A stretch of DNA of 64,000 nt from Pyrinomonadaceae bacterium (GCA_035537255.1 DATLMN010000065.1:826-64825); one strand, 5' to 3'. Shown: positions 3,875 through 57,697, numbered from the stretch's first letter. The notes: generated by a model not told the origin, from the sequence alone. Numbers and translations are program-made.

Positions 3875-3878
3875 TTGT

Positions 3879-6031: not shown

Positions 6032-6071
6032 GTGAAGACCTGTTGCAGAGATTAATGCGCGGAAAGAAATT

Positions 6072-6201: not shown

Positions 6202-6254
6202 TGATTCTGCTTCGCGCGACTTGTCCCTATATTTTCATTAGCGACCTTTAATCG

Positions 6255-14295: not shown

Positions 14296-14335
14296 GAGCG
14301 TGAAGGAACAAGCGCCGCCAAAGCGATAGAGTGAC

Positions 14336-14551
14336 AGCCCCTGAAAGGGGCGAAAGAATATAGCCCACGGCTGATGCCGCGGGGACAAGTGTCATACAGA
14401 GAGTAAGAGCCCCGAAGGGGCGAAAGAGATTCGTGTTTAAGATTTACTCAACACGGATTTCTCTCGCCCCTCCGGGGCTCTGATTTTTGTTTAGCCGTGT
14501 GCCCATGACTCACGTCATGGTCTACATTACGCTCGCCCCTTGCAGGGGCTT
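14336..14551. repeat. MITE-like multi-hairpin element R, copy 1
   Basis: About 215 bp. Sub-hairpins GCCCCTgaaAGGGGC, CCCACGGCtgatGCCGCGGG, a long central hairpin GAGCCCCGAAGGGGCGAAAGAGATTCGTGTT..AACACGGATTTCTCTCGCCCCTCCGGGGCTC, CCATGACtcacGTCATGG and GCCCCTtgcAGGGGC. Confidence 0.9.
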
Positions 14552-14568
14552 CACTACGCATGCGCCTT

Positions 14569-17680: not shown

Positions 17681-17757
17681 AAAAAGCAGATGTCAGATGT
17701 CAGATGCTGGATGCTAGTCAAAGCATTTCTCTAACATCTAACATCCGGCATCTGCTC
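17681..17757. repeat. Heptamer-arm inverted repeat, family G
   Basis: GCAGATG TCAGATG TCAGATG CTGGATG CTAG ... CTAACAT CTAACAT CCGGCAT CTGC. Lies between two convergent genes. Confidence 0.9.
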
Positions 17758-18434: not shown

Positions 18435-18501
18435 TAGTTTTCAGTTTTCAGTAATCAGTTTTCAGTTAAAACAAAAAGCTGAAAACTCAAAACTGAAAAC
18501 T
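18435..18501. repeat. Heptamer-arm inverted repeat, family B copy 2
   Basis: AGTTTTC AGTTTTC AGTAATC AGTTTTC ... GCTGAAAACTCAAAACTGAAAACT. Lies between the CcdA-Trx stop and the Trx-like gene start. Confidence 0.9.
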
Positions 18502-18503
18502 GT

Positions 18504-24587: not shown

Positions 24588-24709
24588 CAGAAGTCAGAAA
24601 TCAGGACTCAGAATTCAGAATAGAGGCGCGGCAGGTGCTTCTTACCTTGAACTATGATTCCTGAACGACGCTCTTCTACTGACTCCTGAATTCTGAGTCC
24701 TGAGTCCTA
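24588..24709. repeat. Heptamer-arm inverted repeat, family F
   Basis: TCAGAAA TCAGGAC TCAGAAT TCAGAAT ... CTACTGA CTCCTGA ATTCTGA GTCCTGA GTCCT. Lies in the divergent gap between thiO-like and IDH. Confidence 0.9.
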
Positions 24710-25715: not shown

Positions 25716-25720
25716 TTAGC

Positions 25721-25937
25721 AAGCCCCTGCAAGGGCTAAAGAATGTAGCCCACGGCGTCAGCCGTGGGGGACAAGTGTCATACAGAGAGTGAGAGCCCCG
25801 AAGGGGCGAAAGAGATTCGTGTTTGAGATTTACTCAACACGGATTTCTGTCGCCCCTCCGGGGCTCTGAATTTTGTTTAGCCGTGTGCCCATGACTTACG
25901 TCATGGTCTACATTACGCTCGCCCTTTGCAGAGGCTT
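25721..25937. repeat. MITE-like multi-hairpin element R, copy 2
   Basis: Collinear with copy 1 with only scattered substitutions (roughly 95% identity by eye, not computed). Confidence 0.9.
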
Positions 25938-25950
25938 TTCATACTTTTAC

Positions 25951-31000: not shown

Positions 31001-31184
31001 GACGTTGACGCAGATCAGCTTCGGATAGTAGAGCCTGGAAGGCACAGCCGGGATTTCCTCAAAGTGCGCGAGGCGTACAGAGATCGCAGGCGCATACTCT
31101 CACAGGAGCTTTTAAAAGATCAAGGTTTATGCTGTGAACTGAAAGGTTCGTGTAGCCTTCGATACTCTTGGAAACAACATCGGG

Positions 31185-31432
31185 AAGCCCCTGATAAGAG
31201 GCGATAGAATGTAGCCCATGACGTAAGTGGGGAAAGCAGTCAAGCAAAGAGTGAGAGCCCCGAAGGGGCGACAGAAATCCGATGTTGAGTATCTTTCAAA
31301 GATGAATCTCTTTCGCCCCTTCGGGGCTCTCACTCTTTGTATCAACTGTCCCCAAGGCTGACGCCGTGGGCTACACTCTATCGCCCCCTTCGGGGCTTGC
31401 TTGGCTGCATTTTGCCGCCCCTTCTGGGCTTT
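31185..31432. repeat. MITE-like multi-hairpin element R, copy 3 (inverted, more diverged)
   Basis: Same modules in the opposite order (..TAGCCCATGACGTAAGTGGGG..GAGAGCCCCGAAGGGGCGACAG..CCCCAAGGCTGACGCCGTGGGCTA..). Confidence 0.8.
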
Positions 31433-31444
31433 TTCATTCCCTTT

Positions 31445-32797: not shown

Positions 32798-32995
32798 AAC
32801 GGTCTCCTTAAAAAGCGAGCAGGATATTCGGCGAGGTGCTTTTGTGCTTTGAATACGCATAGGCCCTTGATGGTTGTCCCTTAAGGAAAAACTAAAGGCA
32901 TAAGTATAGAAGGCCCGTGGCCTCTACTTTTGCCTTTGTCTCTGCGGTTTTTTTGCGATTTTAGAGCGGGTTGCGGTTGAGAGTATGTAAGAACG

Positions 32996-33098
32996 TTCAC
33001 CGCAGAGGCGCAGAGTTTACGCAGAGCAGACGCAGAGAGTGGAATTTAATTCTCTGCGTCTGCTCTGCGCCTTTCTCTCTGTGCGTCTCTGCGGTGAA
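32996..33098. repeat. Inverted repeat family H copy 1 (CAGAG-unit arms)
   Basis: TTCACCGCAGAGGCGCAGAGTTTACGCAGAGCAGACGCAGAGAG ... CTCTGCGTCTGCTCTGCGCC..CTCTGTGCGTCTCTGCGGTGAA. Confidence 0.85.
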
Positions 33099-33132
33099 TT
33101 GATTCGCGCTTTACTTTCAGCTGAAAATTGTT

Positions 33133-37630: not shown

Positions 37631-37746
37631 ATTCGAAGGTCTCCAACGGGGGAGCAGGAAGAGGCAGATCATGCGAGGCGACGGACGGTACTAATCTAAC
37701 GGACTATGACGCTCTTGCTAAACCTTATCACAGAATCATCTTGGCT

Positions 37747-37947
37747 GCTTCAGCAATCGAAGCAAGAGTGGTAGGTCAATTTGAATAATTGAATAAGCAT
37801 TGCACCAGAGACTCACCACAGAGACACAGAGGACACGTAGATGACACAGAGAGTCAGTATCACTCAAACCTCCGTGCTTCCTCTGTGCCTCTGTGGTGAA
37901 TGGCAGCTTTCATCACTCTCAATTTCAAATTGACCCACTACTGAAGC
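37747..37947. repeat. Nested inverted repeat, family H-like core inside an outer palindrome
   Basis: Core CACCACAGAGACACAGAGGACACG ... CGTGCTTCCTCTGTGCCTCTGTGGTG. Outer arms AGTGGTAGGTCAATTTGAA / TTCAAATTGACCCACTACT. Confidence 0.75.
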
Positions 37948-38112
37948 GAGAGCGGCAGCCGTCTAAATTTCGGTGGCGGACGCCGAAGTAATAGTCTAAG
38001 ATTCCGGCCAAGCGATTCCCCTGTTTCCCTCTTTGATGTCAGGCCCAAGGGTTTGCCGCTCCTGACGGCGAACCCGATTCGATAATCCGCGCAAGGGGAA
38101 GAATCTTAACTT

Positions 38113-44362: not shown

Positions 44363-45685
44363 TCAAGAGTTTTGAGCTGTTGTGATGGCGACCGCTTGCT
44401 CTTTTTCCGTTTGCTCCGCCGTTGGCCCAAAGGGAAGCTCAATCGCGAAGGTCGAGCCCTCGCCCGGCTTTGAATCGACGCTGACTTCGCCGCCGTGCGC
44501 GCGCGCCAGATGCTTGACGATAGCGAGGCCAAGGCCCGTCCCACCCACATCGCGAGAGCGCGAGTGGTCAACCCTGTAGAAGCGCTCGAAGATGCGCGTC
44601 AGTTGCTCCGAACGAATGCCGTCGCCCGTGTCGCGCACAGTGATGCGGTCACGCTCGGCCTTCTGCTCATGCCTGATCGTGACCGTCCCACCCTCGCGAT
44701 TAAATTTGATCGCGTTATCGATCAGGTTGGTCAGCATCTGTTCCAGACGACGAGGGTCTGCGTAGACGCTCACTTCTGTTGGGACTTCATTGTTGATCGA
44801 GACGTGCGCGGCTTCGGCACGCGCGGCGAGTGCAGTCCTCACGTCTTCCACCAGCGGGCGCAAGCTAACAGGTTTGGGATGAACCGGAGATGTTCCGGCC
44901 TCTATGGCAGATAGTTCCAGAATGTCTTCGATGAGGCTGCGCATGCGCTCTGCGTTGCGGCGAATTACACTGAGGAAGCGCTGGTTATTTTCCGTGTCGT
45001 TGATCGCTCCGTCTTCTAGAGTCTCGACGAAGGCTAGGATCGCCGCGAGCGGCGTGCGCAGCTCGTGCGAGACGTTGGAGAGAAATTCCTGGCGCACGCG
45101 CTCCAATCTTTCGAGCCGCGTGATGTCGAAGAAGACGCCGACAGCCCCGCGCGTCTTTATATCATCGCTTAAGTGCAAAGGAATGACGCGCAGGCTGAAG
45201 ATTCTGCGATCTTCTGCCGCAAGCATCTCGACTCTGGCGTTGGCCTGCGTGTTCTGCTTCAGCGCCTCGGAAAATGCCGCATGGATGGACGGGTTGCGCG
45301 TCAGCTCAGACAAGGCTCTGTCTTCGAGCGGGCCTTCGACGTGGCTGAAAATCTCAAGCGCCGCGCGATTCGAGGCGACCACGAGCATCGCTTGATCGAC
45401 GACGACCATGCCTTCGCGCATGTTCTTCATCGTCGCTTCGAGCAGACGCGATGCGCGCTCGGCATCATCGACGGCGCTCCGGCCCTGCTCAAATACGCTC
45501 GAAGCCGCAACCCTTGAGCGACTCTTCTCATCCTGATTGCGAAAGAGCAGACGCCCGAAGGCGATGCCCGCGAGAATGGCGCAAAGCAGCGCCAGCCCCG
45601 TGCGCAGATTCAGGGGATGCGTCACCAGCAGCGCCGCGACACCCGCACCGCAAACAAAAAGCGCAAACCACAGACGAAGAGACAT
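44363..45685 (-). CDS. phoR: Phosphate-regulon sensor histidine kinase
   Basis: TM region, PAS-like segment, H-box SHELRTPLAAI and the HATPase motif GGTGLGLAIVKHL. Adjacent to phoB, phoU and pstSCAB. Confidence 0.8.
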   Translation of the reverse strand: MSLRLWFALFVCGAGVAALLVTHPLNLRTGLALLCAILAGIAFGRLLFRNQDEKSRSRVAASSVFEQGRSAVDDAERASRLLEATMKNMREGMVVVDQAMLVVASNRAALEIFSHVEGPLEDRALSELTRNPSIHAAFSEALKQNTQANARVEMLAAEDRRIFSLRVIPLHLSDDIKTRGAVGVFFDITRLERLERVRQEFLSNVSHELRTPLAAILAFVETLEDGAINDTENNQRFLSVIRRNAERMRSLIEDILELSAIEAGTSPVHPKPVSLRPLVEDVRTALAARAEAAHVSINNEVPTEVSVYADPRRLEQMLTNLIDNAIKFNREGGTVTIRHEQKAERDRITVRDTGDGIRSEQLTRIFERFYRVDHSRSRDVGGTGLGLAIVKHLARAHGGEVSVDSKPGEGSTFAIELPFGPTAEQTEKEQAVAITTAQNS

Positions 45686-45797
45686 AAAAATAAGGGATGA
45701 AGGATGAGGGATGAGGGATGAAGTAAAGACGGACTGAATGATTCAACACTTGGTCGGTTCAATCATTCATCCCTCACGCTGCCGCCCTCATCCCTTC
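45686..45797. repeat. Heptamer-arm inverted repeat, family C copy 2
   Basis: GGGATGA AGGATGA GGGATGA GGGATGA ... TTCATCCCTCACGCTGCCGCCCTCATCCC, with inner palindrome GAATGATT/AATCATTC. Lies between phoB and phoR. Confidence 0.9.
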
Positions 45798-46482
45798 TAT
45801 TGGCGCATCCGACAAAGCGATAGCCAACGCCGATGACTGTTTCCAGGCACGAGCCGCAGTCGCCAAGCTTTTGTCTAAGGCGACGAATATGTACGTCCAG
45901 AGTGCGCGTGTCGCCGTAATACTGGTGTCCCCAGACATCGTCCAGGAGTCGCTGGCGCGTCGCGACGCGACCGGCGCTCTTTGCCAGCATGGAGAGCAGC
46001 GCAAACTCCTTGCGTGTGAGCTTGACGCTCTCGCCGTCGCAAGTGACCTGCATATCTGCGAAATCAATCTGTAGACGACTGTCCTCGTAACGCGCGCTCT
46101 GATTATCGTCTGTGCGGCGCAACACTGCGCGAACGCGCGCCATCAGCTCGCGCACGGAGAAAGGCTTCGCAATGTAGTCGTCAGCGCCAAGATCAAGCCC
46201 GGCTACACGATCAGCCTCAGAGACGCGCGCCGTCAACATAATAATCGGGGTGCGTCGCGTCGCGGGCTCGCGCCTGAGGCGGCGGCACAACTCCATGCCG
46301 CTCATTCCCGGCAGCATCAAATCCAGAATCACGAGCGCCGGTGGACTCTTGACATCGAGCGCCGCCGCCAGGCCCTTTTCGCCCGTCTCGGCAATTCGCA
46401 CCTCAAGCCCGTCGCGCTCTAGATTGTAGCGCAGGCTCTCCGCAATATCCGCGTCATCTTCGACGATCAGTATAGGTCGCAT
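45763..46482 (-). CDS. phoB: OmpR-family response regulator (PhoB-like)
   Basis: Receiver domain ILIVEDD..DLMLPG..; winged-helix C-terminus ..IGVGYRF. The last ~11 codons and the stop are encoded by repeat C2. Confidence 0.8.
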   Translation of the reverse strand: MRPILIVEDDADIAESLRYNLERDGLEVRIAETGEKGLAAALDVKSPPALVILDLMLPGMSGMELCRRLRREPATRRTPIIMLTARVSEADRVAGLDLGADDYIAKPFSVRELMARVRAVLRRTDDNQSARYEDSRLQIDFADMQVTCDGESVKLTRKEFALLSMLAKSAGRVATRQRLLDDVWGHQYYGDTRTLDVHIRRLRQKLGDCGSCLETVIGVGYRFVGCANRRDEGGSVRDE

Positions 46483-46593
46483 AAAAGCAGGGATGAGGGC
46501 GGAGGGATGAGGGATGAAAGGGGTTGAGCGAATGATTCATTTGTAATGTGATTCAGCGGTTCATCCCTCATCCTTCATCCCTCATCCCTTCGT
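46483..46593. repeat. Heptamer-arm inverted repeat, family C copy 3
   Basis: GGGATGA GGGCGGA GGGATGA GGGATGA ... TCATCCC TCATCCT TCATCCC TCATCCC. Lies between phoU and phoB. Confidence 0.9.
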
Positions 46594-47253
46594 TCAGTTG
46601 CTGTGTTTGATAAAGGCGGCTTCGGTCATGTAAACGGTCAGCTCGCAGATGTCCGTGACGTAATCGCCGATGCGTTCGATGTGTTTGGCGACGAAGAGCA
46701 GTCGCGCGGCGCGCGTCGTCGTCGCAGGGTCTTGGGTCATCAGCTCGATCAGATCGTGAAAGATGCCATTATAGAGTTCGTCTATCTGGTCGTCCCGCGC
46801 GATGACTCTGCGCGCGGCCGCCGCATCATTGGTAGTGAAGGCGTTAAGTGCAGCATGCAGCATGCTGGCCGCGTGCTCTGCCATCAGCGGCAGATCGACG
46901 TGGGTTTTGAGTTGCGGCTCATCGTTAAGGTCAATGGTGGCGCGGGCGATGTTGCAGGCGTGATCGGCGATGCGTTCCAGGAGCGGCGTGATCTTCGCCA
47001 CGGAGATGACGAAGCGCAGGTCGCGCGCCGCCGGTTGACGCAGCGCGATGGTGTCGACGCAGAGACGATCTATTTCCAGCTCAAGTTGATCTATCTCGTC
47101 ATCGCCCGCGAGAACTTCACGCGCCGTCGCGCTATCGCGTTCGACCAGCGCGTACATAGCTCTCTGAAGCGCCGTCTCCGTCTCGCCGCCCAGCAGCAGC
47201 ACGCGGTCACGTAAAACGCCCAGCTCGCGATCAAGTAATCTATGCTGTTCCAT
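46594..47253 (-). CDS. phoU: Phosphate signalling complex protein PhoU
   Basis: 219 aa with the two PhoU repeats containing E/DxxxD-type motifs (..RIADHACNIA.. / ..RIGDYVTDIC..). Confidence 0.9.
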   Translation of the reverse strand: MEQHRLLDRELGVLRDRVLLLGGETETALQRAMYALVERDSATAREVLAGDDEIDQLELEIDRLCVDTIALRQPAARDLRFVISVAKITPLLERIADHACNIARATIDLNDEPQLKTHVDLPLMAEHAASMLHAALNAFTTNDAAAARRVIARDDQIDELYNGIFHDLIELMTQDPATTTRAARLLFVAKHIERIGDYVTDICELTVYMTEAAFIKHSN

Positions 47254-47347
47254 AACTCAATTTTGGATTTTAGATTTTGGATTAACGAACGGATTGAATG
47301 AAGCTGACGGCTCTATCTCTCAATCCAAAATCCAAAATCTAAAATTA
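47254..47347. repeat. Heptamer-arm inverted repeat, family A copy 3
   Basis: TTTTGGA TTTTAGA TTTTGGA ... AATCCAAAATCCAAAATCTAAAATT. Fills the pstB-stop to phoU-start gap. Confidence 0.9.
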
Positions 47348-48205
47348 ACCAAACCGTCCGGTAATGTAATCCTCCGTCAGCTTCTCTTCGGGATTGGTGA
47401 ACATGCGCTCTGTGGCGTTGACCTCTATCAGTTTACCCAGCCAGAAGAAGGCCGTCTTGTCGGAGACGCGCGCCGCCTGCTGCATATTATGCGTAACGAT
47501 GACAATAGTGTACTGCTCTTTGAGGCCGACGATCAGCTCTTCGATCTTTTGCGTCGCAATCGGATCGAGCGCCGATGCGGGCTCGTCCATCAATACGACT
47601 TCGGGACGCACAGCCAGCGCACGCGCGATACAAAGACGCTGTTGTTGCCCGCCTGACAGACCGAGCGCTGATGATTTCAAACGGTCTTTCACTTCGGGCC
47701 AGAGCGCCGCATCCAGCAGCGCCTGTTCGACTCTCTCGTGCAGCTCCGCCTTGTTCGCCGCCAGTCGATTGATGCGCAGACCGTAAGCGACGTTGTCGAA
47801 GATGGATTTCGGGAACGGGTTAGACTTTTGAAAAACCATCCCGACTTTGCGACGCAGTTCGACGACATCCGTGTCGGGCGCGTAGATGTCTTGCCCGTCA
47901 ATCTCGATTATCCCTTCGGCGCGTGTGCCGGGAATGGTATCGTTCATGCGATTCAATGTGCGCAGGAACGTAGACTTGCCGCAGCCGGACGGCCCGATCA
48001 GAGCCATCACGCCGCGCTCAGGGATGTTCAGAGAGATATTGTAGAGCGCCTGCGCCCGGCCGTAAAAAAAGTTCAGCTCGCGTACGCCGATTTTTATCTC
48101 GGAAGGGGCGCGCTCCATTTGCTTGCTCACCCGTTCCCGCTCGTCATCAGGAAGTGATTCAGCCATACGGGGCACGCTCACCATTTTTTGAGCTGGCATT
48201 GACAT
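47345..48205 (-). CDS. pstB: Phosphate ABC transporter ATP-binding protein
   Basis: GPSGCGKST Walker [10 protein letters not shown] signature and VLMDEP Walker B. The N-terminal region is typical of PstB. ATG 48205 was chosen because the longer ORF would read through repeat E. Confidence 0.9.
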
Positions 48206-48213
48206 TTTAAATA

Positions 48214-48303
48214 CAGTGACAAGTGACGAGTGGCGACTGACAAGTAAGAAGTCAAAAGCTTTTTCACTGCTTGTCACTTGTCACTTGCCACTCTTCACTG
48301 CTT
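48214..48303. repeat. Heptamer-arm inverted repeat, family E
   Basis: ACAGTGA CAAGTGA CGAGTGG CGACTGA CAAGTAA ... CACTGCTTGTCACTTGTCACTTGCCACTCTTCACTG. Lies between pstA and pstB. Confidence 0.9.
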
Positions 48304-48304
48304 T

Positions 48305-49153
48305 TCAAACTTTCTGGCGCGTAAAGAAGCGCACGGCGATATTGATTAAGAGAATCATCGTCATCAGGACAAGCGTGGCGGCCCAGGCCTGCGCGTGCCA
48401 TTCATCGTAGGGCGAGATGGCGTAATTGTATATCTGCACGGTCAGGCTGGCGATGGGCTGATCCAGATAACCCTCGAAAAAGAAGCGGCTGCCAAACGCC
48501 GTAAACAAAAGCGGCGCTGTCTCGCCGGAGACGCGCGCGATGGCTAGCATCGCCCCCGTCGCAATGCCAGAGCTTGCGGCGGGCAGCACTACTCCCAACG
48601 TCACTCTCCACTGCGGCGCACCCAGGGCGAGCGCCCCCTCGCGCAAAGATGTCGGAACTAAGCGAATCATCTCTTCGGTCGTGCGCGTGACAATCGGAAT
48701 CATAATCAGCGCCAGAGCAATACCACCTGCGAGCGCTGAGAAATGTTTCTGCGGAATGACGATCAGCGTATAAACGAAGACGCCGACGACGATAGAAGGC
48801 ACGCCCGTCAGAGTGTCCGTGACGAAACGCACAGTATGACCAAACCAGCCGTCGCCGTACTCCGCCAGATAAATGCCCGCTGCGATTCCCACTGGCAGAC
48901 CGATCACAGAAGCCAGCCCGAGCAGCAAGAGCGTGCCCGTGATGGCATTGCCGATACCGCCGCCTTCGCCCACGGGGCGCGGCCTGTCCATCAGGAACTG
49001 TAGGTTGATCGAAGTAACGCCGCGCATCAATATGTAACCGAGGATAACTATCAGCACGGCACTGACCGTCAACGCACAAAAGGCCGCGAGCCCTGTCATC
49101 ACAGTGCTCACGATTCTTCGCCGACCGATTTTTCTTCCCTGCCGCTCTTTCAT
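48305..49153 (-). CDS. pstA: Phosphate ABC transporter permease PstA
   Basis: Polytopic permease with an EAA-type loop (..REGALALGAPQWRV..). ATG 49153 overlaps the pstC stop codon (ATGA). Confidence 0.9.
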   Translation of the reverse strand: MKERQGRKIGRRRIVSTVMTGLAAFCALTVSAVLIVILGYILMRGVTSINLQFLMDRPRPVGEGGGIGNAITGTLLLLGLASVIGLPVGIAAGIYLAEYGDGWFGHTVRFVTDTLTGVPSIVVGVFVYTLIVIPQKHFSALAGGIALALIMIPIVTRTTEEMIRLVPTSLREGALALGAPQWRVTLGVVLPAASSGIATGAMLAIARVSGETAPLLFTAFGSRFFFEGYLDQPIASLTVQIYNYAISPYDEWHAQAWAATLVLMTMILLINIAVRFFTRQKV

Positions 49154-50163
49154 GTCGCCCTCGCCGTGCCGCTCGTCCCACGCGTCACGCTCCACACCAG
49201 AAGCTTCGCCAGTCCGTTGACGATAAAAGTAACGACAAACAGAATAAGGCCGATCTCGACCAGCGCGCTCAGGTACAGATCGCCGGTTGCTTCCGTAAAC
49301 TCGTTGGCGATGACGGACGCTATTGTGTAAGAGGGCGCAAAGAGCGAGGCGCTGATCTCCGGTCGATTGCCTATGACCATCGTGACGGCCATCGTCTCAC
49401 CTATGGCGCGTCCCAGCCCCAGAATAATTGCGCCCGCTATTCCCGAAGCGGCGTTAGCCAGCACGACTCTGGTCATCTCCCAACGTGTTGCGCCGAGCGC
49501 AAGCGCCGCCTCGCGCTGCGACGTGGGCACTGCCGAGAGCACATCGCGCACGACCGCCGTGATGATCGGCGTAATCATGATGGCGAGAATGATACCGCCC
49601 GTCAGGAGCCCTATGCCCGTGATGGGCCCACTGAAGAGCGGCAGCCATCCGAGATAGCTTTGAAGCAACGGCTCGACGTGTATGCGCAGCAGGGGCGCAA
49701 GCACGAAGATGCCCCACAGCCCGTAGACGACGGAAGGAATCGCCGCCAGCAGCTCGACCAGAAAGGCCAGCGGGCGCGCAAGGCGCGGCGGCGCTTGCTC
49801 GACCAGAAAGATCGCGACGCCGAGCGAGAATGGCACGGCGATCAGCAGCGCGATCAGCGAAGAGACGACCGTCCCGTAGATAAAGGGCAGCGCGCCGAAC
49901 CGCCCCATCACAGGATTCCACTCGCGCCCCGTCAAAAAGCCAAAGCCGAACTCGCGCAGAGACAGACTGGAATTCGTAGCCATAGAGGCGATCATCAACG
50001 AGACGATCAATAAAATAAGCGCCGCGCTCGCCAGCAGGATCAGTCGAAACACGGCATCGCCCGTCGTGCCCGTCGCAGAGAGCGTGCGCCGCCATCTCCA
50101 CACACGCGCCAACGCGCCGTACGCGGCCGCAGGACTCTGAACATTTTGCTGCGAGCTAGACAT
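49150..50163 (-). CDS. pstC: Phosphate ABC transporter permease PstC
   Basis: Polytopic permease with ..QREAALALGATRWE.. Position is between pstS and pstA. Confidence 0.9.
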   Translation of the reverse strand: MSSSQQNVQSPAAAYGALARVWRWRRTLSATGTTGDAVFRLILLASAALILLIVSLMIASMATNSSLSLREFGFGFLTGREWNPVMGRFGALPFIYGTVVSSLIALLIAVPFSLGVAIFLVEQAPPRLARPLAFLVELLAAIPSVVYGLWGIFVLAPLLRIHVEPLLQSYLGWLPLFSGPITGIGLLTGGIILAIMITPIITAVVRDVLSAVPTSQREAALALGATRWEMTRVVLANAASGIAGAIILGLGRAIGETMAVTMVIGNRPEISASLFAPSYTIASVIANEFTEATGDLYLSALVEIGLILFVVTFIVNGLAKLLVWSVTRGTSGTARAT

Positions 50164-50256
50164 AAAAAGCAGGGATGAGGGCGGAGGGATGAGGGATGAA
50201 GGAAGAACAGTTCAACTTGAATAATTTCTTATTCATCCCTCATCCTTCATCCCTTA
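50164..50256. repeat. Heptamer-arm inverted repeat, family C copy 4
   Basis: GGGATGA GGGCGGA GGGATGA GGGATGA AGGAAGA ... TTCATCCC TCATCCT TCATCCC. Lies between pstS and pstC. Its loop ..GTTCAAC|TTGAATAA.. equals the C1 loop without the tRNA-like core. Confidence 0.9.
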
Positions 50257-51339
50257 TCTCAGTGGTTTCCCGCCTGTGGTTATCGAGTTGATCTTGGCTT
50301 CGGCGCGCTTGACAATCTCTGCGGGCAGCGGCGCGTACTGCAAATCTCTGGCGAACTGCTCGCCCTCGTGTATGCCCCACCAGAGAAAGTCGACGAGCGC
50401 CTTGCCTTTGGCGGCGTCCTTTTGCTCTTTGTAGGCGAGGATGTAAGTGTAGCTTGAGATCGGGTAAGCACTTGCGCCGCTCGCGTTAGTGATCTGTACG
50501 CGCAGGTCTTCGGGAGTTGTCGCCACGGATTCGGCAGCCGCCGCCGTCACAGCATCGAGGCTCGGCAGGACGAAATTGCCGGAGCTGTTTTTGATCTGCG
50601 CGGCGGGCAGCTTGTTCTGCACGGCGTAGGCCAGCTCGACGTAGCCGATAGTGTTCGGCGTTTGCTTGACCTGACCCGTCACGCCCTCGTTGCCTTTGCC
50701 GCCCAGGCCTACGGGCCATTGCGGCGAAGTCCCCGTCCCGACCTTCTCTTTCCACTCTGCGCTGACCTTCGACAGATAGTCCGTGAAGACTGCGCTCGTG
50801 CCGCTGCCGTCCGAGCGATGCACGACAGTGATGTCTGCGGCTGGAAGATTAGCGTTCGCGTTATCGGCCTTGATGCGTGGATCGTCCCAGCGCTTGATCT
50901 TGCCCAGAAAGATGTCCGCGATTACGTCGGGCGAGAAACGCAGCGCTTCCGAGACACCGGACAGGTTGTAGGTCACGACAACAGCGCCGAGCACCGTCGG
51001 GATATGAAGAATTTCGCCGGGCGCTTTCTTCAAATCTTCGTCCTTCATGGGCGAGTCGGACGCGCCGAAATCGATTGTCTGATCCTGTATCTGCTTGATG
51101 CCGCCGCCCGATCCGATTGACTGATAATCCATCTGGACATTCGGATTGATCTTGCCGTATTCGCTCAGCCATTTTTGATAAAGCGGATTGGGAAAAGTCG
51201 CGCCCGCGCCTTGCAGCCGCACCTTTCCGCCGCCACCTCCTGCGCCCCCTTGCTGGCCGCTACAGTTAAAGGAGAGCGCTGCCAATGACAGGATTATCAA
51301 GGCAAGCGTCGCGCGTCGAATCTCTCTGGATAGGGGCAC
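50254..51339 (-). CDS. pstS: Phosphate-binding protein PstS
   Basis: GAGATFPNPLYQKW and HRSDGSGTS motifs. GTG start at 51339 with AGGAG 9-10 nt upstream. Confidence 0.9.
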   Translation of the reverse strand: MPLSREIRRATLALIILSLAALSFNCSGQQGGAGGGGGKVRLQGAGATFPNPLYQKWLSEYGKINPNVQMDYQSIGSGGGIKQIQDQTIDFGASDSPMKDEDLKKAPGEILHIPTVLGAVVVTYNLSGVSEALRFSPDVIADIFLGKIKRWDDPRIKADNANANLPAADITVVHRSDGSGTSAVFTDYLSKVSAEWKEKVGTGTSPQWPVGLGGKGNEGVTGQVKQTPNTIGYVELAYAVQNKLPAAQIKNSSGNFVLPSLDAVTAAAAESVATTPEDLRVQITNASGASAYPISSYTYILAYKEQKDAAKGKALVDFLWWGIHEGEQFARDLQYAPLPAEIVKRAEAKINSITTGGKPLR

Positions 51340-51396
51340 TTGGATGATCTCCTAGCTTCTTCTCGATTGTTGAACAGGACATTAGAGCTTAAGCCC

Positions 51397-51440
51397 TGGA
51401 TGTTAAATCCATCTGAACTTCATCGAAACTTTATGTGAAC
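51397..51440 (-). promoter_or_regulatory. Pho-box-like array upstream of pstS (four 11-bp phased repeats)
   Basis: Minus strand: GTTCACATAAA GTTTCGATGAA GTTCAGATGGA TTTAACATCCA, then 12 nt and TAATGT (-10-like). Lies 58-101 nt upstream of the GTG start. Confidence 0.6.
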
Positions 51441-51486
51441 AAAACGTCGTGCAAGCCGAGCGGTCTAGACTCTCAAAGCAGATTCA

Positions 51487-51579
51487 AACAGGGATGGACA
51501 GAGATTGTCAGGATAAAAACGACGAGTGAGAAGATTAAAAGCCTGCTCCTTGCTCGTCACTTATTACTCGTCACTGCTC
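51487..51579. repeat. Chimeric repeat: family D half-element joined to a family E-like half
   Basis: 33 nt identical to D1 (AACAGGGATGGACAGAGATTGTCAGGATAAAAA), then GACGAGTGAG...CTCGTCACTTATTACTCGTCACTG resembling family E units. The two halves are not mutually complementary. Confidence 0.75.
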
Positions 51580-54500
51580 TTAAAAGTTGAAGCGCACGGC
51601 GAACTGAATCTGGCGGCTTGTGCCAAGGCCGACGGTGCGCTCGACCGTTTGCCGCAGCAGACCGAATGTGCCGCCCGCCGCCGACTGTGTGTAGGGTTGT
51701 CCGGGTTGTGTTCCTGTGCCGACAGAGTAAAGTCCCGTCGCCGTGTTGAAGCTGACCGTCGGGAGCGCCAGATTCAAGCGGGACGCTGGAACGTCGAAGT
51801 TCGTAAAGTTAAAGATATTGAAGAACTCCGCGCGCAGCTCTACGTTCTTGCTCTCCGTCAGGCGGATACGCTTGTTGAGGATAAAGTCTACCTGCTTGAA
51901 ATTTGGCCCGCGCAAAGCGTTGCGCGCCAGATCGCCGAATGTGCCGGGCAGCGGCGTGGCAAAGGCCGCAGGGTTCAGAATGCTGCGGTCATTGTTCAAG
52001 TAAGGATCGACGCCGGGGATCAAGTCCGGGCGTCGAACGTTGCGCGATGCCCCACCGCCGGGCGTATTGACGACGGCGATAAAGCCCGGCGGCAGCGGAT
52101 TCGCCGCGTTGATCGTGCCCGGCAGTTGCGCCACAAAGCCTTGGGCCAACAGCGTCGTCGCACCACCCGCGCCCGTCGGCACGACACATCCTCCCGCCGT
52201 GACACATTGCATCACCAAGTCAGGGCGCACAATGCCGATCTCAAGTGGAAGACCGCTGCGAGCATTAATGATCGTGCCGATTTCCAGATTGCCCAGAAGC
52301 TTATCAAGGACGCCGCCCATGTCGAGCGTTTTGCCGCTGCCGACCGGCAGCAGATAAAGCGCGCTGAAGTTAAAGGTATGACGCACGTCGAAATTGTTGT
52401 AGCTTCGGTCATAATCGAACTCATCAAGAGCGCGGGCATTGTTGGCCGCCGTGCGCGCTTCGTTTGAACCGGCTGTATTACCGATTGAGCGCCCGAAAGT
52501 GTACTGCGCGTTCAGGGTCAAGCCTGTGCTAAAACGGCGCGCAAGCTGAACCTGCAAAGCGTTGTAGCTGTCAGAGCCTCCGCTCGTTTTGTAGTCAACC
52601 TCCGCAAAGGGATTGTTGACGGAGCTTGTGCCGGAGACGAGCGAGAACTCGCGCACGGTGTTGACGGCGATGACACGGCCCGTCGCAGCGTCCGTGCGAT
52701 TGATGATGCCAAAGCCTGTGGGCAACTGCGTGCCGTTAACAATCGTAGTTTGGCCCGGCAAAATCTGATTGGTGACACTGCGCAAAAATAGATTGCGTCC
52801 CTGACTGCCGACGTAACCGATGGTCGCCACCATCTTGTAAGGCAACTCCTGCTGGATGGAGAAGCTGTACTGGTAAACCTTCTCAGGGATCGTGTACTCG
52901 GACGCATAAGCGCGCGGCTGGAATGAGCGGTTCAAGGGATTAGCGACGAAGTTTGAGATGATCGCGTTGATGGCGGCGGTCTGATCCGGATTGAACGTGA
53001 GCAGTGGGCCGCTCGTTAAGGTCGAGCTGATGCGGTCTGATTCAATCGGCTGAATCTGATCTTCCGTCTGTCCAGGCCCGTAAAAGATGCCGAACCCTCC
53101 GCGCAGAACTGTTCGACCACCGCCGAAGAATCCGTCGCTGTTAGGGCGCGGCGACCAGCTCAAAGCGAGGCGTGGGCCAAAGTTGGTCTTGGAAGCTTTG
53201 AAGGCCGCTTCCGTCGGGTCACGCAGGATGCCGCGATCAACGTCGAACAGGATTTGCAGGTCGCGTGCTTCGCGCAGCGGCGTGTAATACTCATAGCGCA
53301 ATCCGTAATTCAAGGTCAGGTTCTGTCTGATCTTCCATTCATCCTGCGCGTAGGCGATGTAGTATTCCTGCTCCGCCTTGCGCTGACCCGTCGCGCCGTT
53401 GTTGAAGGGGCTCGGCGCGCTCACATCGCCGAGGTATTGGATGGACTGCGGCTGGTTGAGCAGAAAGCTGTTGATGTTCGAGAAGGTGTAGGTCGTGCCG
53501 CCCTGCCTGTCCGTGTAGAGGCGAATCAAACGAACTTCGCCGCCGAACTTGTAGTTGTGATTCCCCTTCGTCCAGTTCAGATTGTCTATAAAGGAGAGCG
53601 AGTAAGGCGTGTAGGGCTGACCGCGGCCGTTCGTCGCAGAGTTGGCGCGCACCAGTCCGCCGGGCGATGCCATGCCTGCGTTCGTGCCCTGTCCTGGGAG
53701 CGCGAAGCCTGCGACCGAGCCGGAGATGTTGATCGAGAGCTGCGACAGATCAATCCCGTTCACGACGGGCGCGACTCCGTTGACGCGCGTATACGCTTCG
53801 TTAAATCCGACCTTGAACTCGTTGACGACCGTCGGTTTCAGGATGGATTGAAATGCGAGGACTGCGTTCTGCGGATTGGCGACGAAGTTTATATGGCGAC
53901 CCGTGACGCCTTCGGGCTGATCGTTTCTGCCCTGATCGCGGAATAAGCGAAAATAAAAGGAGTGCTTCTGGTTAAAGCGGTTGTCGAAGCGAAAGGCAAC
54001 GGCATTTTCATCTACCTTGGTGGTTGATTGAAGCTGAACTGTATCGAAGAGGTCTGGGCCAACGCGCAGCACCGAGACAGCAGGATCACGAAAGGCGGAG
54101 ATCAAAGGCAGAATGGCAGCGTTACACGCGATTGTTCCAGTGCCCACAGGCGCGGCGCAGATTCTCGAAGCCTGACCCGGAACAGTCTCAATCGAATTGA
54201 TTCCGGCCCGCAGGCGATAGCCTTCGTAAGAGAAGAAGAAAAACGCTTTGTCCCTGATGATTGGCCCACCGATAGAGCCGCCGAATTGATTGAGACGCAG
54301 AGGCGATTTCTTTCCGATAATATTATCGAAAAAGTTGGCGGCATCGAGCGCGTCGTTGCGCAGGTACTCGAACAGCGAGCCGTGAAACTCGTTGCCGCCG
54401 GATTTCGTCACGACGTTGATCTGCCCGCCCGTGCCAGTGCCGTACTCTGCCGGATAGTTACTTGAATCCACGCGAAACTCCTGCACGTTCTCCAGAGAGG

Positions 54501-55173
54501 ATTGCAGGCGAAACGGCGAAGGGACTTCACCGTTAAGATTGCCCGGGCTGGCGTCTATAACGGCAGAGCCCTCTATGCCGTCGTAGCGAACAATATTTTG
54601 TTCGACGGCGCGGCCGGAAAAGCGTATGTCGCCGAACGTGCCGGAACCTGTATTGACGGAGCCGGGCGCTTGCAGATAGAGCTGCGAAAGCTGTCTGCCA
54701 TTAAGCGGCAGACCCACGACCTCGCGCTCGCTGACGTTCGCGCCCATACGCGCCGAGCTGGTATCAATCAAGTCTTCCGACGCACCGGCGCTAACGTCAA
54801 CAGAGGCGGCGACGCCTGTGGCCTGCAACGTGAGATCAAGATTTAGCTCCTGCCCGACAGACAACTGAACGTTATTGATCGTCGCAGAAAGGTTCGTGCC
54901 GCTGACAGTGACCGTATAGGTCGATGCCTTGAGCGGAGAGACAATGTATGTTCCCGATTCAGACGAAACGGCAGTGCGCTCTTCGCCCGTGCGCTCATTC
55001 TTCACGGTAATGTCTGCGCCTTGCACGAGTCCGCCGTTGATGTCCTTGACCGTGCCGACGATGCGGCCTGTATCGGTCTGAGCGAAAACTATTGGGGCAA
55101 TAAAAAATAGCGCCAGCAGCGCTATCAGAAAAGATCGGGGGCGAAGGGGGCGCTCCGCCTGTAGCTTAATCAT
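51580..55173 (-). CDS. TonB-dependent receptor with CarboxypepD_reg-like N-domain, probably Pho-regulated
   Basis: About 1197 aa. AGGAG lies 7 nt before the ATG at 55173. Signal peptide, TGRIVGTVKDINGGLVQGADITVKNERTGEERTAVSSESGTYIV, and C-terminal ..FAVRFNF. Confidence 0.85.
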   Translation of the reverse strand: MIKLQAERPLRPRSFLIALLALFFIAPIVFAQTDTGRIVGTVKDINGGLVQGADITVKNERTGEERTAVSSESGTYIVSPLKASTYTVTVSGTNLSATINNVQLSVGQELNLDLTLQATGVAASVDVSAGASEDLIDTSSARMGANVSEREVVGLPLNGRQLSQLYLQAPGSVNTGSGTFGDIRFSGRAVEQNIVRYDGIEGSAVIDASPGNLNGEVPSPFRLQSSLENVQEFRVDSSNYPAEYGTGTGGQINVVTKSGGNEFHGSLFEYLRNDALDAANFFDNIIGKKSPLRLNQFGGSIGGPIIRDKAFFFFSYEGYRLRAGINSIETVPGQASRICAAPVGTGTIACNAAILPLISAFRDPAVSVLRVGPDLFDTVQLQSTTKVDENAVAFRFDNRFNQKHSFYFRLFRDQGRNDQPEGVTGRHINFVANPQNAVLAFQSILKPTVVNEFKVGFNEAYTRVNGVAPVVNGIDLSQLSINISGSVAGFALPGQGTNAGMASPGGLVRANSATNGRGQPYTPYSLSFIDNLNWTKGNHNYKFGGEVRLIRLYTDRQGGTTYTFSNINSFLLNQPQSIQYLGDVSAPSPFNNGATGQRKAEQEYYIAYAQDEWKIRQNLTLNYGLRYEYYTPLREARDLQILFDVDRGILRDPTEAAFKASKTNFGPRLALSWSPRPNSDGFFGGGRTVLRGGFGIFYGPGQTEDQIQPIESDRISSTLTSGPLLTFNPDQTAAINAIISNFVANPLNRSFQPRAYASEYTIPEKVYQYSFSIQQELPYKMVATIGYVGSQGRNLFLRSVTNQILPGQTTIVNGTQLPTGFGIINRTDAATGRVIAVNTVREFSLVSGTSSVNNPFAEVDYKTSGGSDSYNALQVQLARRFSTGLTLNAQYTFGRSIGNTAGSNEARTAANNARALDEFDYDRSYNNFDVRHTFNFSALYLLPVGSGKTLDMGGVLDKLLGNLEIGTIINARSGLPLEIGIVRPDLVMQCVTAGGCVVPTGAGGATTLLAQGFVAQLPGTINAANPLPPGFIAVVNTPGGGASRNVRRPDLIPGVDPYLNNDRSILNPAAFATPLPGTFGDLARNALRGPNFKQVDFILNKRIRLTESKNVELRAEFFNIFNFTNFDVPASRLNLALPTVSFNTATGLYSVGTGTQPGQPYTQSAAGGTFGLLRQTVERTVGLGTSRQIQFAVRFNF

Positions 55174-55332
55174 AGAAATCTCCTGTGGCCCATGCTTCAT
55201 GTTGAAGGAAATGTGCATCGGCGGAAAAGAGAGTCCGCCGTCAGTTTGTTTATCAGAACAGGTTTCGCAGAGCTTTTTGTTTAGTCACAAGTGCGAACAA
55301 GGAATGTTGCTTCAAGGAAGACAGACTATGTG

Positions 55333-55376
55333 GGCCGAGTTAAAAGGGCGTGAATAGCGCCTTAAATTTTCGTAAA
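55333..55376 (-). promoter_or_regulatory. Pho-box-like array upstream of the TonB-dependent receptor
   Basis: Minus strand: TTTACGAAAAT TTAAGGCGCTA TTCACGCCCTT TTAACTCGGCC, with a TT(T/A/C)A(C/G) core every 11 nt, about 160 nt upstream of ATG 55173. Confidence 0.5.
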
Positions 55377-55425
55377 CTTTTGGCGGGGCGGGAGGCTTGG
55401 AACTATCAACGGCTGACATCACAAA

Positions 55426-55461
55426 GGCGCTTTCAGATTGCGCACACAATCTGAAAGCGCC
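55426..55461 (-). terminator. Strong hairpin downstream of the small 4-Cys protein gene (possible terminator)
   Basis: 15-bp perfect stem GGCGCTTTCAGATTG-cgcaca-CAATCTGAAAGCGCC. The minus-strand tail TTTGTGATG is only weakly U-rich. Confidence 0.4.
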
Positions 55462-55604
55462 TGGAAAAAAGCCTTTCGAGAGCACACAAGCGGGCTTTGC
55501 TACTCGCCTGCGCGCGGCTCTACTTCAGAGACAGATAGAGCAGTATCTCTGCCGTGCTAGACACGCGACTTGTGAGGCTCTTGATTAACCATCGGACGTA
55601 AGAC

Positions 55605-55895
55605 TTAACAAGGAACCCAGCCATTACGACCAGGGTCTTGGCAGCAAATGTCAACGATTTCCGATGTCTGGTATTGCGAGCTTTGTCCGGTCAGAGTTCC
55701 CTGCCCATTACAGTTGACGTAACGACTGCCAATCACCTGTGTGTGGCTCGCGTCACTGTAATAGGTGATTTCATACGAGTACCTGGGCTGAGGTGTAGAA
55801 CTAACTTTACTCGACGGAAGGAAAGCACCCGTTAGCAACAGCGCCAGAAATGCTGCGAAAACAAACCGTCTCACTGCTCCAGAGAATAGTTTCAT
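55605..55895 (-). CDS. Small secreted 4-Cys protein
   Basis: 96 aa with a signal peptide. Mature part ..YEITYYSDASHTQVIGSRYVNCNGQGTL..DICCQDPGRNGWVPC. I have seen the YYSDA...C.G pattern in small secreted proteins, but I will not name a family. Confidence 0.5.
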   Translation of the reverse strand: MKLFSGAVRRFVFAAFLALLLTGAFLPSSKVSSTPQPRYSYEITYYSDASHTQVIGSRYVNCNGQGTLTGQSSQYQTSEIVDICCQDPGRNGWVPC

Positions 55896-56268
55896 GTCTC
55901 CTCCTAATTTTGTGATGGTGTGGTGAAGTTTATTGCGCCCCGAAAAGTCCAGATGTGTCCCTTCGCTAATAGGGCTTAGGGTAAGGCGACCAGCCGAAGC
56001 CGTATCATCGAGGGCTTTCAGCTCATCTTTACTTTATTATTAGGAGCGCAGTTCGTGGGGGAAGATTGAAAAACGTTTTTCCTGTCCAGTTGAGGTGAGC
56101 AACGTTTTTCGGGACTAATCTACTCTTCCGAACAAACAACGTCAAGAAAGTTCTTGATCGGGTAGCGGGTCAGTTTGAGATTGAATACACAGCCTGTTGA
56201 AACTCATCACCGCAAACACAAGAGGAAAGAGAAACCACTCGCCTGAATTTTATCAGGTCAATAAATCG

Positions 56269-56310
56269 AGAGGCCGGAGCGGAACACGTTTGGTTCTCAC
56301 TCCGGCCTCT
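56269..56310 (-). terminator. Hairpin downstream of gene 56339..56881 (possible terminator)
   Basis: AGAGGCCGGAG-(20 nt)-CTCCGGCCTCT. Minus-strand tail CGATTTATTG. Confidence 0.4.
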
Positions 56311-56338
56311 ATTGTGTGCTGTTGCGGCTGTCAGATGT

Positions 56339-56881
56339 TTAGTAACCTCTGTAGCCTTCGGTGTAGCCGTTGATGAACGCCTGACGGAAGTACTGCTGAT
56401 AGATATAGCGGTCGCCAAGACGAGAGCTATAGTCCTTAGAGGCTTCCCTATAGGTCTCCTCATCGTTGTAGTTGAAGCCTTCACCGCGCTCGCGGTCTCT
56501 GCGGCCTTCCTTGACGCCTTCATTAGCGCCGGCGTTGAGAGCGGTCTGGCGAAGCTGCAAAGAGCCTCCGTAGTTGCCATATCCATCATTGGAACGGCCG
56601 TTACCATAGTAACCACCATTGTTACCATAGTACCCGCCGTTGTTACCGTAGATACCGCCACTGCGCTGAGCACGACGCTGCTCGCGTCTCTGTTGACGCT
56701 CTAACTCACGCTGACGACGACGCTGTTCGCGTTCATAGTCGCGCTGACGCCTGTATTGATCATTCTGCCCATAGGGCCACTGCGCCTGTGCGGTCACACT
56801 GGTTGTGATGAATGTGCCAAATAGAAGAGAGAATGCCAGTAATGCTCCCCCAACTCTGTTCCGAATCTGTCTGCTTTTCAT
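56339..56881 (-). CDS. Secreted low-complexity protein (R/Q/E-rich helix plus GYYGNNG repeats plus Tyr-rich C-domain)
   Basis: Signal peptide, RRQRDYEREQRRRQRELERQQRREQRR, GGIYGNNGGYYGNNGGYYGNG, then ..YFRQAFINGYTEGYRGY. Confidence 0.55.
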   Translation of the reverse strand: MKSRQIRNRVGGALLAFSLLFGTFITTSVTAQAQWPYGQNDQYRRQRDYEREQRRRQRELERQQRREQRRAQRSGGIYGNNGGYYGNNGGYYGNGRSNDGYGNYGGSLQLRQTALNAGANEGVKEGRRDRERGEGFNYNDEETYREASKDYSSRLGDRYIYQQYFRQAFINGYTEGYRGY

Positions 56882-57697
56882 ATTCTAACCCCCCTTTGGT
56901 AAGTAACACTGGCAATCACCATGCCAGTAAAAACAACCGTCACCGACTAACAAGTTGCAGGTTGATTGCAATTCCGAGATTTACGGATTTACTTAAAAAA
57001 TAGCCTGTGTTTTTGACTATTTACGTCATTGATTTACTGATCGTCTTCAACATATTTGGTTTTAGATCATATGTATTACAAGAATCCTGGCATATCACCC
57101 AACACTTTCGCCGGTCGTTATATACTTTATAGTGCATACATCCGCTTAAATAGAAAAAAGGGCCGGCGACGCGCGTGCGCTGCCGGGTTGTTTTGTTGGC
57201 CCACCGAAGTTGAATTGAGAAAATAGATGCCGCAAGTAGTGAAAGCTACAGACCGCTGTCGTTTTATCTGTCAACGGCGATTTGATTCTGATCACACAGC
57301 CCGCCGACTAGTCTATATCCCAGACTAGCCAGTAACGCTTTTTCCTGTTTTTATAAAGGTGTGTCTAGAGAGGGGCGCGCGCCGGACGCGCCGTTTTGAG
57401 TGTGTTAGTTCGGATGGCGTTCAGGCTCTGTTGGTGATTGGCCCAGGCGTTCGTAACTAATATTTAATCGGCCATTAACCGTAAGTTTAGGGTGGGTGTT
57501 TATGATCTGGCCTGCACCCGCCCCTCACTTGTGTCTGGCTTGGGTTGTGCGAGGGCGCTTAAGTTCCTCGCACAACCCCAACTCATCAAGAGCTTTTAAG
57601 CCTGCCTCTCGCGCTGGCAGAAAACTCTAACAATCGTCGAGCGTTCCGGCTTGAAGAGTCATTTGCCTTGGCGGCTCACTGTCACGCCGGCTGTAGC

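Follow-up and report, generated by a model that had tools for sequence, protein, structure and literature searches.

Tandem-heptamer hairpins at the gene junctions of a Pyrinomonadaceae pst-pho cluster recur at unrelated loci and in related genomes

The stretch of DNA analyzed here (the window) comprises 64,000 nucleotides (nt) from a Pyrinomonadaceae bacterium (GCA_035537255.1, DATLMN010000065.1:826-64825), and carries on its minus strand a phosphate (Pho) cluster in the order TonB-dependent-receptor-like protein, pstS, pstC, pstA, pstB, phoU, phoB and phoR. Five of the 6 junctions of the pstSCAB-phoU-phoB-phoR series are occupied by an 80-115-base hairpin with arms built of tandem heptamers, while the sixth is an ATGA overlap. 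An earlier sequence-only reading had proposed that each open gap of this cluster is filled by such a hairpin, drawn from four unrelated families. The genes and hairpins are listed below; a strand is given for the genes and the promoter repeats.

44363-45685, minus strand: phoR-like sensor histidine kinase; best hits PnpS/PhoR (1e-108 and 1e-88), below the equivalog cut-off; synteny conserved
45687-45801: C2 hairpin, GGGATGA units, between phoB and phoR; -46 kcal/mol, z -5.3
45763-46482, minus strand: phoB response regulator; TIGR02154, 1.6e-71; start anchored at MRPILIVEDD
46484-46594: C3 hairpin, GGGATGA units plus one GGGCGGA, between phoU and phoB; 35-nt arms, 86% complementary; -50.4 kcal/mol, z -7.6
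46594-47253, minus strand: phoU; TIGR02135, 211.9 bits against a cut-off of 130
47259-47346: A3 hairpin, ATTTTGG/ATTTTAG units, between pstB and phoU; 25-nt arms, 92% complementary; z -5.6
47345-48205, minus strand: pstB; TIGR00972, 394.8 bits; N-terminal 37 residues conserved in many relatives
48214-48300: E hairpin, AGTGACA/AGTGACG units, between pstA and pstB; z -4.5
48305-49153, minus strand: pstA; start overlaps the pstC stop (ATGA, 49150-49153)
49150-50163, minus strand: pstC; TIGR02138, 311.7 bits
50169-50258: C4 hairpin, GGGATGA units, between pstS and pstC; z -5.4; aligns with the arms flanking tRNA-Lys at 2663-2811
50254-51339, minus strand: pstS; GTG start with AGGAG 8 nt upstream; TIGR00975, 409 bits
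51398-51440, minus strand: candidate Pho boxes of the pstS promoter, four GTTCAN-like direct repeats with 11-nt spacing, from a reading of the sequence
51481-51579: 'D2 chimera', between the receptor and pstS; fragment of a small hairpin with GTGACGA-type units, joined to a 33-nt piece
51580-55173, minus strand: TonB-dependent-receptor-like outer-membrane protein; AGGAG before ATG 55173

Paired heptamer arrays were found at all 5 open junctions using Tandem Repeats Finder (TRF) together with an inverted-repeat scan. Folded as RNA, the junction hairpins reached -31 to -50 kcal/mol (z -4.5 to -7.6), and none of 200 shuffles was equally stable. The filling of the open gaps was therefore confirmed, as was the element-free overlap of pstC and pstA at 49150-49153. 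The adjacency of stop and start codons to the element ends also held throughout the cluster. Between pstS and pstC, GGGATGAAGG directly follows the TAA stop, and the element ends in CATCCCTGCTTTTT followed by ATG. The pstA-pstB element opens as TGA-aaag-CAGTGAAGAGTGG and closes as GTCACTG-tatttaaa-ATG. The pstB stop codon (TAA) falls within the first ATTTTAG unit of A3, which ends CCAAAATTGAGTT-ATG, and the phoU-phoB element likewise ends CATCCCTGCTTTT-ATG. The phoB open reading frame (ORF) extends ~13 codons into C2, such that the 5' arm provides the last ~13 codons of phoB together with its stop, the PhoB model ending at residue 223 of 239; the C2 element itself ends CATCCCTTATTTTT-ATG. One claim that did not survive was that the D2 chimera is a gap-filling hairpin. 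The region as a whole displayed no significant fold (z +0.44) and represents a fragment, its 33-nt piece being identical to part of an element at 6032-6254 (shared AACAGGGATGGACAGAGATTGTCAGGATAAAAA).

Profile scores for PstS, PstC, PstA, PstB and PhoU exceeded the NCBIfam equivalog cut-offs. PhoB and PhoR were best matches but fell under the cut-off; their identities are backed by conservation of synteny in 80 relatives. N-terminal conservation across relatives suggests that pstB starts at M1 or M3, while the receptor likely starts at ATG 55173, which has AGGAG in front of it, rather than at the longest-ORF start at 55218. As had been noted before, AGGAG is present in the window ahead of pstS and the receptor, while the internal Pho cistrons lack a Shine-Dalgarno (SD) motif. 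The GTTCAN-like repeats upstream of pstS are followed by TCTAAT, and together these look like the Pho boxes and -10 element of a PhoB-dependent promoter. An identical copy of the phoU region is present on a Joint Genome Institute (JGI) soil metagenome contig.

To place these hairpins in context we used 80 related loci from a PhoU-seeded scan of species-representative genomes, giving 81 loci with the window. All 80 belong to Pyrinomonadaceae or Blastocatellia (Acidobacteriota), with PhoU identity of 73-85% and conserved pstSCAB-phoU-phoBR synteny. A census of 20-kb loci centered on the pho cluster identified 195 heptamer-arm hairpins in 1.32 Mb, 12 in the window and 183 in the relatives. The elements (68-137 nt) share a common build, in which two inverted arms of 3-6 tandem heptamers each (20-40 nt, 73-100% complementary) enclose a 15-60-nt loop. 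An inverted partner within 220 nt was present for 317 of 357 period-7 arrays (89%), compared to ~2% of period-5 and period-6 arrays, and arrays of period 8-11 were almost nil. In the window itself, all 20 heptamer arrays had an inverted partner, making 12 hairpins, while 20 composition-preserving shuffles gave 0.35 arrays, none with an inverted partner, and no hairpins.

The arms of these elements are highly diverse. We counted 83 different consensus heptamer units, with no terminal tetranucleotide common to all, and 81% of units contained a stop triplet on one or both strands versus 67% after shuffling of the unit letters. The loops are less so. A core, AAAGACAA, was found with up to one mismatch in 46 of 189 loops, compared to ~6 in shuffled loops; it occurs with 29 unit types and directly abuts an arm. 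Loops often open with (T)TRAAAGACAA..GCTTTT, a typical one being TGAAAGACAAAAGCTTT, and the loop of the E hairpin, AAGTCAAAAGCTTTT, is the shared core with one mismatch. The notion of four unrelated families is consequently untenable: they have one architecture, in which a single core spans many unit types.

Dispersed copies with shared variant units were apparent within the window, namely four of C type, three of A type and two of AGTTTTC type. The C2, C3 and C4 hairpins and the arms that flank tRNA-Lys have in common an odd GGGCGGA unit as well as flanking bases, and an AGYAATC unit is common to both AGTTTTC copies. Since odd units and flanks are shared, these C-type and AGTTTTC copies are copies of one another, and not independent products of slippage. 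A change of GATGA to GCGGA was observed repeatedly across unit types (GGGATGA/GGGCGGA, ACGATGA/ACGCGGA and ATGATGA/ATGCGGA; for example window 46495-46517 and loci L015, L032, L037 and L064), which may reflect exchange between families or a constraint common to them. In locus L021 (1496-1664, phoU-phoB), the loop of a GTGACAA-type hairpin harbors a second hairpin, of CGTAAAT type, indicating that elements can insert into one another.

The window's seven non-Pho hairpins occupy quite different settings:

174-262: A-type hairpin upstream of a MoxR gene, with TTGAAAGACA in its loop (heptamer-hairpin detector)
1219-1335: A-type hairpin filling the MoxR-DUF58 junction; z -8.8
2663-2811: C-type arms enclosing tRNA-Lys(CTT), the tRNA at 2702-2775 (plus strand)
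3776-3873: AGTTTTC-type hairpin filling a divergent gap; z -5.6
17685-17756: CAGATGT-type hairpin in a minus-strand gap (heptamer-hairpin detector)
18436-18503: AGTTTTC-type hairpin between DsbD-thioredoxin and redoxin genes; z -5.1
24601-24708: CAGAATT/CAGGACT-type hairpin filling a divergent gap; z -4.0

MoxR and DUF58 are a classic operon pair. Presence of such hairpins at this junction, between DsbD and redoxin, in two divergent gaps and around a tRNA shows that they are not a Pho-specific device. Throughout the census, only 3 of 195 elements lay wholly within called ORFs. Similar elements were found farther afield, in an unbiased metagenome sample of at least 120 loci with GKGATGA hairpins (L082-L201). 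Among the matches listed, these occupied 29 of 81 convergent, 41 of 296 same-strand and 5 of 76 divergent gaps, at a median distance of 3-15 nt from the flanking ORFs. They are therefore elements that sit after stop codons and avoid promoter regions. The contigs bearing the listed matches ranged from 40 to 71% G+C; the distribution of this type of element probably extends well beyond Pyrinomonadaceae. None of the 120 listed was in a true pst-pho cluster, with fewer than one expected. Some GKGATGA hairpins lie between two-component-system genes (L104, L138 and L183).

We next compared the same Pho junctions across the relatives. The fraction filled was 33% for pstS-pstC, 9% for pstC-pstA, 34% for pstA-pstB, 34% for pstB-phoU, 55% for phoU-phoB and 20% for phoB-phoR, or 32% of the 395 relative junctions overall. 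Each of the 4 most-filled junctions contained 15-27 unit types, and in twelve relatives at least 4 of the 6 junctions were filled. Relatives of this kind had been proposed as a check on a functional role, and the outcome went partly against it: 23 of the 81 loci were element-free, including that of Pyrinomonas methylaliphatogenes K22, and 13-52 relatives per junction had Pho spacers of 30 nt or less, some of only 4-30 nt. At phoU-phoB the spacer was 4-11 nt in a dozen relatives.

Turnover was evident between close species. In loci L066 and L069, whose phoU genes are 97.7% identical, the pstB-phoU junction is filled in one and empty in the other, while phoU-phoB contains a GAACCGT element in the first and a GTGATGA element in the second. 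Likewise, L064 displays an empty site, TAAAGGCAG|TTATG, and L058, L037 and L041 contain an element between the same flanks. We considered gradual compensatory evolution of an ancestral hairpin as the source of this diversity, and rejected it: the orthologous elements of L061 and L076 differ by uncompensated transitions, and very close species hold different unit types. Taken together, these comparisons document same-variant copies at unrelated loci, gain, loss and replacement of elements between close species, siting after stop codons and avoidance of divergent gaps.

The position of the hairpins relative to stop and start codons recurred in the relatives. Among the 99 filled phoU-phoB and pstB-phoU junctions, the stop lay in or no more than 3 nt from the stem base in 88, and the start was within ~3-4 nt of the stem base in 64; outside genes with anchored starts, longest-ORF calling exaggerates this closeness. 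The TAA stop was frequently paired with the TTA of TTATG. An SD-like core preceded phoB in none of 55 filled junctions and in 3 of 17 with a short spacer, and was present before 26% of all crude gene calls. Given this scarcity of SD motifs, the internal cistrons probably depend on translational coupling. A self-pairing insert keeps stop and start adjacent, which makes the juxtaposition proposed in the sequence-only reading a plausible reason for the elements being tolerated in tight junctions.

Several possible activities of the hairpins were examined and rejected. Intrinsic termination found no support, as a T-tract (5 or more T within the 8 nt that follow the stem) was present in only 5 of 134 Pho elements, and a consensus scan flagged none. 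Loop-core orientation was random, with 15 cores facing along the operon and 17 facing the opposite way. If pairing were selected in the sense RNA then G·U pairs should not favor the antisense; we counted 245 on the sense and 345 on the antisense side (p = 4e-5, 134 Pho elements), although this is a weak test for such long stems. The antisense fold was the more stable in 80 of the 134, and same-strand elements outside pho displayed the same trend (72 antisense versus 51 sense). The G·U asymmetry thus speaks against selection for pairing specifically in mRNA. A·C mismatches in the stems, equivalent to G·U on the antisense strand, were commoner on the sense strand, which is opposite to expectation for mRNA-level selection or sense-strand deamination. 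Finally, there was no overall sign that the stop context serves as a template for the arms or attracts them through microhomology (mean 2.72 versus 2.59, z 1.5), the few strong cases being ORFs that end inside an element.

On balance, we favor as the probable explanation that the Pho hairpins are members of a superfamily of dispersed palindromic repeats, small and non-coding, which extends throughout the lineage; these would resemble REP, ERIC and Correia elements in kind and be tolerated in gene junctions. Given 83 unit types and the lack of target-site duplication, the elements would spread by a mechanism that recognizes structure or the loop, and not the sequence of the arms. The two arms may then evolve in concert, through slippage combined with arm-to-arm correction or recombination. 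In a tight junction the transcript would fold into a long stem that loops out ~80-110 nt, returning the upstream stop and the SD-less start to within a few nt of each other, much as in the presumed ancestral spacers of 4-20 nt, and termination-coupled initiation could thereby survive the insertion. Any effect on Pst/Pho stoichiometry, whether by RNase III cleavage or by a block to exonucleases at a 3' hairpin, would be a by-product, possibly co-opted, and would not define the element.

Several observations weigh against this explanation. Pho junctions are more often filled than others. Among same-strand pairs with a residual spacer of less than 40 nt, 47% were filled in pho compared to 17% outside (window excluded; Fisher p ~3e-8, from crude ORF calls and with shared ancestry ignored), and at element-bearing loci with a residual spacer of 1-15 nt the values were 74% in pho and 41% at tight same-strand junctions outside. 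Element density was 0.30 per kb in pst-pho spans and 0.07 per kb outside. Some elements have persisted: the C3 loop has recognizable homologs at phoU-phoB in L050 and L059, and an AAAAATG element is kept in L037, L041 and L064, at ~80% PhoU identity in both instances. Such persistence, together with the Pho enrichment, is compatible with selection at Pho junctions. Furthermore, no transposase domain or REP-associated tyrosine transposase (RAYT) was found in any window ORF, and no target-site duplication was found flanking the window elements or in the filled/empty comparisons (L064/L058 and L069/L066). The census itself was centered on the pho cluster, with crude longest-ORF gene calls outside it. 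The 41% occupancy outside pho nevertheless indicates that filling of tight junctions is a genome-wide habit, so that Pho junctions are only partly special. We rate a selected role for the elements at Pho junctions as somewhere between doubtful and unlikely.

Two functional accounts, developed from those of the sequence-only reading, were weighed. In the first, the hairpins would be selected operon-internal regulators that set the levels of pstS, pstCAB, phoU and phoBR through mRNA stabilization, RNase III/E processing or partial termination, a role known for REP or ERIC elements in some operons of enterobacteria. The fuller Pho junctions stand in its favor (55% at phoU-phoB, 32% overall, and an occupancy ~2-3 times that of other tight same-strand junctions), as do the twelve relatives with most junctions filled, the seemingly convergent presence of unrelated unit types at one junction, and the long persistence of some orthologous elements. 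In addition, near-perfect stems of 25-35 base pairs would be expected to serve as RNase III substrates. Yet more than a quarter of the loci lack elements altogether (23 of 81), some relatives have short spacers instead, and sites are filled or empty despite 97.7% identical phoU genes. U-tracts are lacking, orientation is random, the G·U asymmetry falls on the antisense side, the same elements occur in convergent and divergent gaps and around a tRNA, and the enrichment statistic ignores phylogeny. We therefore regard such regulators as unlikely: the greater filling of Pho junctions is real, while termination and a directional RNA signal found no support. In the second, the elements would exist for the sake of termination-reinitiation bridged by the hairpin, with the stem pairing the stop region to the start region and the terminating ribosome melting the stem base and exposing the adjacent SD-less start. 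The geometry is real (88 of 99 stops and 64 of 99 starts), TAA...TTATG pairings recur, and AGGAG is found on promoter-proximal pstS and the receptor, while the lack of an SD before phoB in 55 of 55 filled junctions makes hairpin-bridged coupling a reasonable mechanism. The same geometry, however, is the trivial outcome of a self-pairing insert in a spacer of 4-20 nt. SD-less starts are the norm in this lineage, phoB also lacks an SD at empty sites, reinitiation is impossible in the convergent gaps where elements also sit, and longest-ORF calls inflate stem closeness outside the anchored genes. Coupling across the stem as the purpose of the elements thus strikes us as possible, albeit somewhat doubtful.

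We also questioned whether the hairpins are mobile at all. Each could have formed in place by local heptamer slippage followed by palindrome formation, as might be suspected from the differing number and order of units among orthologous copies, and from a first unit that is sometimes in phase with the coding sequence and stop (for example L066, CGTGAGG-GCGTGA|GCCGTGAAC). In support of such an origin, the part of the literature summarized in PMC4679880 credits Mrazek (2007) with the finding that heptanucleotides are the commonest long simple-sequence repeats of bacteria, ascribed to polymerase slippage. In contrast, separate loci share arms and flanks with odd variants, one loop core spans 29 unit types, the test for phase or microhomology with the stop context was null overall (z 1.5), and an inverted partner in 89% of arrays is beyond slippage alone. 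In-place formation is accordingly very improbable. A bolder proposal unites several of these themes: a new element class with a conserved core (AAAGACAA..GCTTTT), freely evolving arms of 7-nt period, mobilization by a loop- or structure-specific enzyme that leaves no target duplication, and stop-codon targeting, co-opted as the standard junction device of operons in SD-poor Acidobacteria, such that internal cistrons would be translated only by reinitiation across the stem base and the phosphate operon would be the most equipped. We judge this full combination decidedly unlikely. The dispersed palindromic repeat remains our preferred explanation.

Other features of the window deserve mention. 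The tRNA-Lys(CTT) at 2702-2775 (ARAGORN; Rfam tRNA, 39 bits) occupies exactly the loop of a C-type heptamer hairpin, and its acceptor and T stems are unusually A+T-rich. The C4 hairpin aligns with this element as though the tRNA body had been deleted (TTCAAC|TTGAATAA), and TGATTCA(AC) is also present in the C2 and C3 loops. The C family may derive from, or may have captured, this tRNA-Lys locus; another possibility is that the arms serve as a processing stem. The divergent gap at 3771-3878 (108 nt) is hairpin throughout, with both called start codons pairing at the base, and its loop contains a good sigma-70-type match, TTGAAA-16 nt-TAATAT, directed at a formiminotransferase-cyclodeaminase gene. 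Some elements may thus carry outward promoters. As a general role for the loop we rejected promoter activity: there was this one good match, yet the loop core faces either way relative to genes.

A second, non-heptamer family of long G+C-rich hairpins (~-0.5 kcal/mol per nt; core GAGCCCCGAAGGGGCGAAAGAGATTCGTGTT) was observed at 14296-14568, 25716-25950 and 31046-31444. The last copy contains an Rfam Acido-Lenti-1 match (31351-31397), and the Acido-Lenti-1 'sRNA' (small RNA) motif may here be part of a repeat element. Very stable long hairpins of CAGAGxx/CTCTGxx-like units occupy 32861-33132 and 37673-38112, where the entire gaps fold at -132 and -154 kcal/mol; these may be related to the heptamer hairpins, on a larger scale. 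Few convincing ORFs were found at 55219-57650, where gaps of 1120 and 769 nt and a 21-nt tandem repeat (56600-56660) are present.

These elements matter whichever explanation is correct. If they are selfish only, then they offer a clean system for the evolution of palindromic repeats, with many arm 'alleles', one loop, a strict 7-nt period and visible turnover. If the junction role is true, then it would explain translation of SD-less internal cistrons in the phylum, and the hairpins would represent a natural, portable module of 'insulated coupling' for operon design. Matched filled and empty Pho junctions in close relatives make the question directly testable. In either case annotators of Acidobacteriota metagenome-assembled genomes (MAGs) should be aware that the elements shape stop codons, C-terminal tails and start calls.

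With respect to known systems, an Rfam scan of the window returned the tRNA and Acido-Lenti-1 only, with no match at the Pho junctions at or above the gathering score, and full-text literature searches uncovered no account of elements of this kind in Acidobacteria. Enterobacterial repetitive intergenic consensus elements (ERIC, or intergenic repeat units, IRU) are imperfect palindromes of ~127 bp with a conserved core, located in transcribed intergenic regions, including those within operons, and variably present between species; in Yersinia they have been reported to affect the stability of mRNA. ERIC forms one sequence family that lacks a heptamer period, and a relationship to our elements at the sequence level would not be expected. 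Correia elements (NEMIS) are 100-150-bp inverted-repeat elements that are co-transcribed, cleaved by RNase III, contain a central integration host factor (IHF) site and sometimes bear outward promoters. Their terminal repeats are fixed at 26 bp and they duplicate a TA target, whereas here the arms are variable and periodic and there is no duplication. Miniature inverted-repeat transposable elements (MITEs) resemble the hairpins in their inverted repeats, size class (50-500 bp), non-coding nature and multiple dispersed copies, but differ by target-site duplication, which is missing here. A split ribosome-binding site and structure-mediated coupling, as in phage T4 gene 38/25 and MS2 coat-replicase, likewise use a hairpin to join signals or mask a start; those are single, locus-specific conserved structures, unlike the copies of a dispersed family described here. 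Repetitive extragenic palindromic (REP) sequences are found in transcribed spacers and at gene 3' ends, have termini that can supply stop codons, and consist of 20-40-bp units with a GTAG or CGTC tag (PMC3733652). The likeness to REP, bacterial interspersed mosaic elements (BIME) and REPINs is considerable, as all are abundant extragenic hairpins abutting ORF ends, and a REPIN is a ~100-nt hairpin of two inverted units. REP, however, has one or few sequence types per genome as opposed to 83 heptamer types and no common tag, and the RAYT gene of the REPIN-RAYT pairing has no counterpart in the window. MITE, REP, terminator and any Rfam family each fail at least one of the defining features tested. 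Closest in periodicity are the short tandemly repeated repetitive (STRR) sequences of cyanobacteria and the TAACTGA heptamers of marine Beggiatoaceae, which are tandem intergenic heptamers near starts, and several units here carry the same ACTG/CAGT core. The TAACTGA repeats lie mostly a few nt upstream of starts, in spacers that rarely have a canonical ribosome-binding site, and a Beggiatoaceae genome contains 169 direct sets and one inverted (PMC4679880). In the Acidobacteriota loci, by contrast, 89% of arrays are paired in inverted orientation, and dozens of different units coexist.

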